This document shows positions 42,486-54,006 of a DNA stretch of 55,850 bases, in pieces (position 1 is the first letter of the stretch; every line of letters begins with the position of its first letter). The DNA comes from a virus. The notes beneath the pieces were generated by a model. That model searched no databases, was not told the origin of the DNA, and worked only from the letters and a program-made list of their open reading frames with translations. The position numbers and the translations under genes are program-made. The DNA lies in IMG/VR virus record IMGVR_UViG_3300017613_000748, one strand, 5' to 3'.

Positions 42486-42673
42486 CTTGGGACGATCACA
42501 GCAAAACCCGAGGCCCTCGCGCACCTTGGAAGATCAAGACGGAGAAGACTATAGGGCAATCTGGAAAATGGATACTGTTCGCCGCCCTTATATGGTACTT
42601 CATTGTTTGGCCACTATTTTTCCCGCATAACCCACACGGAGAAATGCCTTCAGATTGGCCGGGGCTTCGTTAA
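42482..42673 (+). CDS. Small membrane protein (63 aa)
   Basis: ORF with an ATGA overlap. TM segment WILFAALIWYFIVWPLFF. Confidence 0.5.
   Translation: MTWDDHSKTRGPRAPWKIKTEKTIGQSGKWILFAALIWYFIVWPLFFPHNPHGEMPSDWPGLR

Positions 42674-54006: not shown

Follow-up and report, generated by a model that had tools for sequence, protein, structure and literature searches.

A 3,778-residue phage polyvalent protein with an N4-type N-terminal domain and exchangeable modules

Results

A giant ORF ends the virion gene block

The window, meaning the whole 55,850-nt stretch of viral DNA that we analysed (IMG/VR record IMGVR_UViG_3300017613_000748), comprises a 55,729-bp genome and a 121-nt end overlap, bases 1-121 being identical to bases 55730-55850. 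Because a 725-aa ORF spans the joined ends, we interpret the repeat as an assembly overlap and the genome as circular or permuted, with a length of 55,729 bp. The ORF listing contains one minus-strand frame that begins with ATG and runs unbroken through 3,778 codons to its stop. The features of its setting are:

16983-18527, minus strand: terminase gene, virion block
14988-16928, minus strand: portal gene, virion block
12898-13755, minus strand: major capsid gene, virion block
3434-4657, minus strand: head-closure gene, virion block
1..1884, minus strand: 5' part of the 725-aa Cys-rich ORF, the rest of which lies at 55436-55729 once the ends are joined
54018..55331, minus strand: 437-aa gene upstream of the giant ORF, a candidate co-ejected protein by position only
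42670..54006, minus strand: the giant ORF

A preliminary description of this sequence had reported a single uninterrupted ORF that fills one fifth of the genome and closes the minus-strand virion operon. Both statements hold: the ORF accounts for 20.3% of the 55,729 bp, and it is the final minus-strand gene, with convergent plus-strand genes next. The terminase, portal, capsid and head-closure genes lie upstream on the same strand, and after head-closure the order is ORFs of 366, 154, 725 and 437 aa, then the giant ORF. The gene thus occupies the podovirus ejection-protein slot, as had been proposed. Its immediate neighbour is indeed the Gly/Gln-rich 437-aa protein already recognized (12% Gly, 8% Gln), which has no PHROG match. 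The 725-aa ORF likewise gave no match in the PHROG search, leaving its former designation as a nozzle- or fibre-like gene unsupported. None of the 437-, 725-, 154- and 366-aa upstream proteins showed similarity to N4 gp51 or gp52, or to the upstream genes of Y3 and L003. The portal is ~33% identical to portals of HMO-2011-type marine podoviruses, and the remaining genome carries lambdoid-type RecE/RecT and DnaD-like genes.

Such an ORF might instead be an assembly chimera or a mis-joined frame. It is known from one assembly, since the exact 3,778-aa protein was absent from all collections searched; a megablast search of GenBank phages with the giant ORF and a 36-nt repeat scan of IMG/VR also gave no match. 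The G+C content along the ORF ranges from 0.45 to 0.54, and a 39-nt internal direct repeat might mislead an assembler. However, 3,778 stop-free codons are implausible by chance at ~3 stops per 64 codons, each module has in-register homologues, and similar ORFs occur in cultured phages that were sequenced independently. We consider an artefact of this kind extremely improbable.

The protein is an array of modules

Sequence and profile comparisons divided the giant protein into the following segments, listed from its N-terminus:

52885..53844, minus strand: N-module (aa 55-374; relatives align to ~aa 430), Gly/Ala-rich, homologue of N4-type virion RNA polymerase (vRNAP) N-termini
50380..52716, minus strand: region aa 431-1209, charged linkers and small modules, no family match
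51700..51738, minus strand: PKEALPESGVSVS copy 1 (aa 757-769), internal direct repeat
49672..50379, minus strand: zincin-like module 1 (aa 1210-1445, HETIH), phrog_37402 match
49636..49674, minus strand: PKEALPESGVSVS copy 2 (aa 1445-1457), 688 codons after copy 1
48121..49035, minus strand: GP88-like Cys-cluster domain (aa 1658-1962), a HMMER family with PF17338 relatives
46822..47889, minus strand: RadC/JAB module (aa 2040-2395; Pfam core aa 2105-2220), PF04002
46282..46899, minus strand: HEXXXH metallopeptidase-like module (aa 2370-2575), hhalign match to the gp50 peptidase, phrog_873
45352..46248, minus strand: ART-PolyVal-like domain (aa 2587-2885), apparently split, sub-threshold for PF18760
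42673..45309, minus strand: C-module (aa 2900-3778), conserved all-alpha module with 193 homologues

The five enzyme-like signatures named in the preliminary description were all present as strings: HETIH at aa 1322, EEFIAE at 1368, CAKFCYAC at 1754, HNHPTGD at 2175, SSAD at 2185, HEVVGH at 2455, WHGS at 2590 and GLYFA at 2617. Two of these, CxxxCxxC and HETIH, did not prove to be conserved motifs, as detailed below.

The N-module resembles the membrane-associated domain of the N4 virion RNA polymerase

Profile-profile comparison (hhalign) of the N-module with nine diverse Schitoviridae vRNAP N-termini gave a probability of 99.2% (E 3e-19), with aa 55-374 aligning onto N4 gp50 residues 114-439 over 289 columns. 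An HMM of the N-module matched N4 gp50 248-459 (E 3e-19), and a nine-sequence N-module profile matched gp50 270-439 at a probability of 97.5%. Against N4 alone the score was 96.8, compared with a maximum of 28.9 among 60 composition-preserving shuffles. The alignments identify the N-module as a homologue of the membrane-associated N-terminal domain of N4-type vRNAPs, a match that the preliminary description had overlooked. Residues 49-430 also resemble the N-termini of Y3 ORF30, douglas 12A4 gp62 and the metagenomic giants P0210, P0197 and P0145. These relatives were found by exhaustive search and local profiles; a word-indexed search with the N-module alignment gave no match.

The hydrophobic glycine-zipper character ascribed to this N-terminus was borne out in part. 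GxxxGxxxG occurs at aa 65 and aa 364, but no segment reaches transmembrane-level hydrophobicity, the best 19-residue Kyte-Doolittle mean being only 1.28. The N-terminal domain of N4 gp50, for which membrane helices are predicted at aa 224-278, inserts into nanodiscs. It has been proposed to link gp50 with gp51 and the inner membrane and to anchor it to the ejectosome, and the remainder of gp50 has been proposed to pass as beads-on-a-string (PMC13434306, PMC13492108). Iyer et al. 2017 reported no relatives of the gp50 N-terminal region outside the N4-like phages (PMC5512222); here, by contrast, such a region heads a polymerase-less protein.

An N4-type N-terminus raises the question of whether a divergent polymerase lies concealed in the unassigned region, which would make the protein a cryptic virion RNA polymerase of the N4 kind. 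It shares both the N-terminal domain and a peptidase module with gp50, and the vB_PunP_Y3 paper names a virion RNA polymerase as one of the N4 hallmarks of that phage. This is apparently the view taken there of a Y3 ORF, possibly the giant one. Against such a polymerase, the full gp50 comparison matched the N-terminus only, neither Pfam nor PHROG gave a polymerase match, and a PDB sequence search with the whole protein returned only RadC and not the solved N4 polymerase domain. The unassigned stretch, moreover, is ~780 aa long and broken by charged linkers, compared with ~1,100 aa for the N4 polymerase domain. We judge a hidden polymerase highly improbable, and an N4-type front end alone gives no ground for annotating giant ORFs as RNA polymerases.

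RadC/JAB, metallopeptidase-like and ADP-ribosyltransferase-like modules

The RadC/JAB motif recognized earlier was borne out. PF04002 matched with an E-value of 6e-23 and 81.6 bits (cutoff 22.1), which is the only curated Pfam threshold that the protein passes, and a PDB sequence search matched the RadC homologue 2qlc (E 2e-5). The JAMM motif is intact, with E2124, H2175, H2177, S2185 and D2188 conserved in 33 sequences.

Downstream, HEVVGH had been read as a second zincin. It appears to be a variant one: the spacing is HExxxH rather than HExxH, but the ligands are conserved among 47 sequences (H2455 and E2456 at 95%, H2460 and E2518 at 100%). This module has no Pfam model match; aa 2424-2633 match phrog_873 (E 3e-20). 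By hhalign the module aligned with the N4 gp50 peptidase region (probability 78%) and with a seven-sequence Schitoviridae vRNAP peptidase profile (probability 88%, E 3e-6). Its score against N4 alone was 40.0, compared with a maximum of 23.1 among 60 window-shuffles. A HEXXXH variant has been described among the metallopeptidases of polyvalent proteins, for which autoprocessing was proposed (Iyer et al. 2017, PMC5512222).

The PARP-like WHGS/GLYFA motif corresponds to a relative of ART-PolyVal in which two putative residues of the H-Y-D active site (strands 1, 2 and 5) are conserved, H2591 at 92% and Y2619 at 96%. The domain is apparently split, and it scores 21.2 to 24.1 bits against the PF18760 cutoff of 31.2, covering only profile positions 7-70 of 140. 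Close homologues do pass this threshold (P0001 with 74 bits, P0041 with 56 bits). Each half on its own aligned to genuine ART-PolyVal domains (P 7e-5 and 6e-4), the N-terminal half with the domain of Y3 ORF30 and aa 2835-2880 with the C-terminal strands of the P0041 domain. Because the C-terminal half aligns near aa 2835-2880, the domain appears to contain an insert of ~200 aa. The HEXXXH and ART region together matches the 'internal virion protein' of Burkholderia phage Bp-AMP1.

A possibly degenerate zincin-like module and an internal repeat

The HETIH and EEFIAE strings had been taken together as a zincin signature. Residues 1212-1448 match phrog_37402 (E 3e-17), and only two homologues were found, P0267 and P0022, in which E1369 (within EEFIAE) is conserved. 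Although HETIH is present, it is offset from the family motif: the HExxH of both homologues aligns with H1318-T-L-M-H1322, and HETIH follows four residues, or one helical turn, later. A weak hhalign alignment of this module to the N4 gp50 peptidase region has the same H1318-H1322 register. Since the HExxH register falls on H1318-T-L-M-H1322, Thr stands in place of the family's catalytic Glu, and the predicted metal site may have shifted register or be dead.

Between the N-module and module 1, aa 431-1209 (~780 aa) gave no match in Pfam or PHROG, and only sporadic matches to pieces of the giant proteins P0264, P0259, P0261, P0268 and P0270. The first copy of PKEALPESGVSVS lies in this region and the second at the end of module 1. 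We considered it as a conserved cleavage site and rejected that reading: the 39 coding bases of the two copies are near-identical (38/39), and none of the related giant proteins compared contains the peptide. The repeat looks more like a recent duplication or a recombination scar flanking a 688-codon cassette.

A GP88-like Cys-cluster domain is common in giant phage proteins

All eight cysteines of the giant protein fall within aa 1701-2000. A word-indexed homologue search with aa 1200-2010 gave no match, and an exhaustive HMMER search of the representative library with aa 801-2000 gave 349 matches (E<=1e-3). Of the 150 matches listed, nearly all cover aa 1658-1962, and 141 of these 150 representatives carry the Cys-cluster domain. 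The conserved pattern consists of K1736, C1748-x-P-S-x-x-C1754-A-x-x-C1758-Y-A, R1819, G1824, F1847-S-K and S1866-x-D, followed by a second Cys cluster (C1933, C1945, C1948 and C1956). Invariant positions are C1748, C1754, C1758, Y1759 and C1933; C1945, C1948 and C1956 are conserved at 89%.

The CxxxCxxC cluster singled out in the preliminary description does occur as a string, but the position of C1761 is Thr or Ala in 99/127 relatives. Because this cysteine is not conserved, CxxxCxxC is accidental, and the conserved motif of the domain is Cx5Cx3C-Y-A. A radical SAM reading of the cluster was rejected on the same residue.

Of 24 relatives aligned, 18 matched PF17338 (GP88) at E<0.01, the best of them at 1e-9, and the giant protein itself scored 18.2 bits, below the gathering cutoff of 24.4. 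The domain is best called a divergent relative of GP88. Its AF2 model has a beta/alpha fold (pLDDT 84); a PDB fold search with the model placed TYW1 and TIM barrels best, none of them significant (TYW1 E 0.13, TM-score 0.29). The profile-search check that had been suggested for the protein therefore places RadC above its Pfam threshold, and ART-PolyVal and GP88 below theirs.

The GP88-like domain is common in phage proteins of 2,000-7,000 aa. The 141 representatives that carry it have a median length of 2,771 aa; 108 have 2,000 aa or more, 32 have 3,778 aa or more, and the longest reaches 7,058 aa. The size and domain mix of the giant protein had been called notable, but both are less unusual than that suggests. 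Its size is not exceptional: metagenomic relatives of 2,000-7,058 aa are common, 32/141 related representatives being at least as long, and cultured counterparts exist. The main text of Iyer et al. 2017 (PMC5512222) does not mention a GP88-like Cys-cluster domain, and we found no literature description of this domain as an injected effector.

The C-module is widespread and has a homologue detected in virions

The C-terminal ~880 aa had been described as having no nameable signature. A PDB search by sequence profile indeed gave no match, but the region is a widespread module: aa 3037-3765 match phrog_22602, 'virion structural protein' (E 2e-81), and 193 homologues were found, mostly of 900-1,530 aa with the module at the C-terminus. 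Their front ends vary and include ART-PolyVal, LPD1/LPD5, RadC with MuF_C, and LAGLIDADG. An AF2 model built from 57 sequences is all-alpha (pLDDT 84, pTM 0.80). Compared by fold with the PDB, in a library that may predate full-length gp50 structures, its best match had an E-value of 0.17 and a TM-score <0.15. BFVD gave 83 matches, mostly to C-terminal parts of 'large polyvalent protein associated domain' proteins; others were proteins named for helicase, zeta toxin, RelA/SpoT, lysozyme and methylase domains.

Cellulophaga phage phi18:3 gp123 (PHROG 22602) has the same C-module (27% identity, E 6e-78), and the predicted structure of the phi19:3 homologue matches it at a TM-score of 0.78. The record of gp123 is that of a structural protein, annotated from experimental MS/MS proteomics; it is the sole experimental link to the virion, by homology. 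The protein otherwise differs, being 1,935 aa long with another N-terminal part and encoded by an unrelated 71-kb phage (Pachyviridae).

These data bear on the possibility that the giant protein is a late, unpackaged cytoplasmic protein, such as an assembly factor or a superinfection-exclusion or host-takeover protein. The present phage is known from its sequence, and the functions of most of the protein are at best predicted, which leaves some room for it. Detection of a C-module homologue in virions, homology of the N-module to a known ejected protein, and a gene position that suits a virion component all oppose it, and we regard it as very unlikely.

The C-module is a candidate incorporation determinant. 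This role is a guess, because hhalign of sequence profiles found the module unrelated to N4-type C-terminal domains (probability 0.3-0.5%), the N4 C-terminal region being needed for encapsidation. The N-module was carried by none of 120 C-module proteins of up to 1,530 aa among the matches listed; therefore, the two modules are not an obligatory pair.

Modules are shuffled among relatives

The modules recur in other orders across hundreds of giant proteins (for example P0148, P0189, P0269 and P0227). An IMG/VR contig encodes a 3,158-aa ORF that shares only its last 950 aa with the giant protein. Cultured phages of 49-58 kb also carry counterparts: Vibrio phage douglas 12A4 encodes gp62 (3,026 aa), and Pseudoalteromonas phage vB_PunP_Y3 encodes ORF30 (3,421 aa) followed by ORF31 (1,027 aa). 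These lie in the same place, at the end of the virion block. Y3 ORF30 and douglas 12A4 gp62 have the same N-terminal N-module, and a HEXXXH module close to the C-terminal part. In Y3 the array is divided between two adjacent genes, the second of which, ORF31, consists of ART and a C-module that is 45% identical to ours. The contents differ in other respects. Y3 ORF30 carries DdrB-ParB, ART, methylase, LPD5 and LPD1 as cargo, gp62 has a different C-terminal module, and the content of aa 431-2370 is not shared by either phage, the peptidase module excepted.

The proteins with the closest C-modules, P0001 (1,477 aa) and P0003 (1,517 aa), are encoded by complete terminal genes without an N-module, and P0001 aligns with the giant protein from aa 2378 on. 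The giant gene seems to have arisen by fusion, in which an N-module polyvalent gene would have been joined to a [HEXXXH-ART-C-module] gene near aa 2370. Y3 ORF30 looks like a model for the first partner, and the 1,477-aa P0001 or Y3 ORF31 for the second. A fusion is the simplest reading of P0001 and P0003 and of the two adjacent Y3 genes.

Discussion

We conclude that the giant protein is genuine and well preserved, a phage polyvalent protein that adds a large new member to a known class. The preliminary description had assigned it to the polyvalent proteins of Iyer et al. 2017, and this assignment is supported by disparate domains in one chain, a place in the late block, module recurrence, and the MS/MS detection in virions of another protein that ends in the C-module. 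At least two unrelated activities are predicted in the chain: RadC/JAB, a relative of ART-PolyVal, a HEXXXH module and a GP88-like Cys domain.

The ORF probably encodes an ejection protein that is packaged in the virion and also serves as a carrier of polyvalent effectors. Counting against this reading, a single predicted enzymatic domain passes a curated threshold, and module 1 has no catalytic Glu in register. Two upstream genes without similarity to N4 gp51 or gp52 also count against it.

A structural role could be envisaged instead, in which the protein would form the inner-membrane or cytoplasmic end of a DNA channel, like T7 gp16, with its enzyme-like domains serving envelope penetration, self-processing or the handling of DNA at entry rather than an assault on host defences. 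The homology of the N-module to the membrane-associated domain of gp50, the ejection-protein slot and the Bp-AMP1 match of the HEXXXH and ART region would all suit an ejectosome component. Pfam found no lysozyme or transglycosylase domain, however, and RadC, ART and GP88-like domains have no evident channel-building role. The middle modules, furthermore, are freely exchanged between relatives while the ends are retained, as would be expected for cargo rather than for a channel. An ejectosome component is unlikely, though it is the strongest of the alternatives considered here.

For the ejected carrier, the ORF, its homologies, the shuffling and the gene position were observed directly, and we infer along the following lines how the protein is packaged, ejected, anchored in the membrane and processed, and what all of its enzymatic activities are. 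The giant protein would be made late, and a few copies would enter the capsid, with the C-module as the best candidate for an incorporation determinant. It would leave by the short tail, either before the DNA or together with it, as a loosely folded chain of the beads-on-a-string type, and the N-module would anchor it to the ejection channel at the inner-membrane end. Once in the cytoplasm, the middle modules would act on targets of the host or its defences, the RadC/JAB module as a metal-dependent hydrolase, the GP88-like domain as a Cys-cluster enzyme and the ART-like domain as an ADP-ribosyltransferase of the H-Y type. Cutting of the chain into pieces is a possible task of the HEXXXH peptidase-like module.

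We tentatively extend this proposal, with slightly more doubt than confidence, to the N4 vRNAP, which might be a special case of a wider podovirus family of 'carrier' ejection proteins. In such a family, a shared N-terminal anchor and a metallopeptidase-like module would deliver interchangeable cargo, here enzymes including a GP88-like, possibly Fe-S, domain. The N-module joins two fields that have been treated apart, polyvalent effectors (studied by computation only) and the N4 ejectosome (for which structures are now known). If the shared N-terminal domain works alike in both, N4 would offer an experimental model of how multi-enzyme chains of 400 kDa are forced through a 35-angstrom tail. 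Two abundant modules, the all-alpha C-module and the GP88-like Cys-cluster domain, are targets for structural and functional work.

Compared with the polyvalent proteins of Iyer et al. 2017 (PMC5512222), the giant protein differs in that Pfam detected no LPD, MuF, DdrB-ParB, methylase or helicase hub domain. It resembles them in combining RadC, an ART-PolyVal type domain and a zincin-like peptidase, including HEXXXH, in one chain, in its place among the late virion genes of a portal-terminase phage, and in the shuffling of its modules between relatives. The phage is not N4-like: its genome is 55.7 kb, its recombination and replication genes are of lambdoid type, and the identity of its portal to those of HMO-2011-type phages is only ~33%. 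Its giant protein has no RNA polymerase domain, unlike N4 gp50, and its C-terminal module is unrelated. What the two proteins have in common is giant size (3,778 aa here, 3,500 aa in N4), the position of last gene in the virion block, a homologous N-terminal domain, a homologous metallopeptidase-like module, and a loosely linked multi-domain layout.

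Genome ends and early region

The window begins and ends with an exact 121-nt direct repeat (1-121 = 55730-55850). A minus-strand ORF of 725 aa, running from 55436 across the junction to 1884, is unbroken only when the two ends are joined; therefore, the repeat is an overlap from assembly and not a physical end of the genome.

The early region looks lambdoid, whereas the virion genes are podovirus-like. The lambdoid look stems from the presence of the following genes:

26419-27399, DnaD-like gene
31999-34140, plus strand, RecE-like exonuclease and RecT pair
39086-39925, plus strand, DHH phosphoesterase (phrog_4771, E 2e-72)

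An intergenic stretch within this plus-strand region (35918-36577) carries at least 16 9-mers, in which AGCGAGCCA alternates with AGACAACCA at a period of 18/36 nt, with occasional 73-nt steps. The array is iteron-like, and could serve as a replication origin or as a binding site for a regulator.

Repeats within coding sequences

6818-9133, minus strand, 771-aa ORF with internal DNA repeats
49629-49674 and 51693-51738, 46-nt direct repeat within the giant ORF

The 771-aa ORF contains seven copies of a 54-nt repeat and four copies of a 119-nt repeat, and had no match among the PHROGs. The product looks repeat-built and is possibly a fibre or appendage protein.

Through the direct repeat, PKEALPESGVSVS appears two times in the product of the giant ORF, at a distance of 688 codons. 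At the DNA level, the copies are identical at 38 of 39 coding bases, and the sequences to either side of them are unrelated. This repeat may be the trace of a cassette insertion or duplication; alternatively, it may represent a risk of deletion by recombination.

Relatives of the giant ORF

The 3,158-aa relative on IMG/VR contig IMGVR_UViG_3300025009_000122 (3149-12625) has a weak, sub-threshold 2H-phosphoesterase/Acb1-like match at aa 786-905 (E 1e-4 and 8e-4). For this sister phage, the match hints at an injected nuclease of the anti-CBASS type.

OR779980.1 24147-34412, 3,421-aa ORF of Pseudoalteromonas phage vB_PunP_Y3

A Pfam scan of the Y3 ORF matched DdrB-ParB, ART, methylase, LPD5 and LPD1, and found no polymerase. 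Y3 has been published as having an N4-like virion RNA polymerase; this assignment may go back to the shared N-terminal domain and peptidase module of the ORF.
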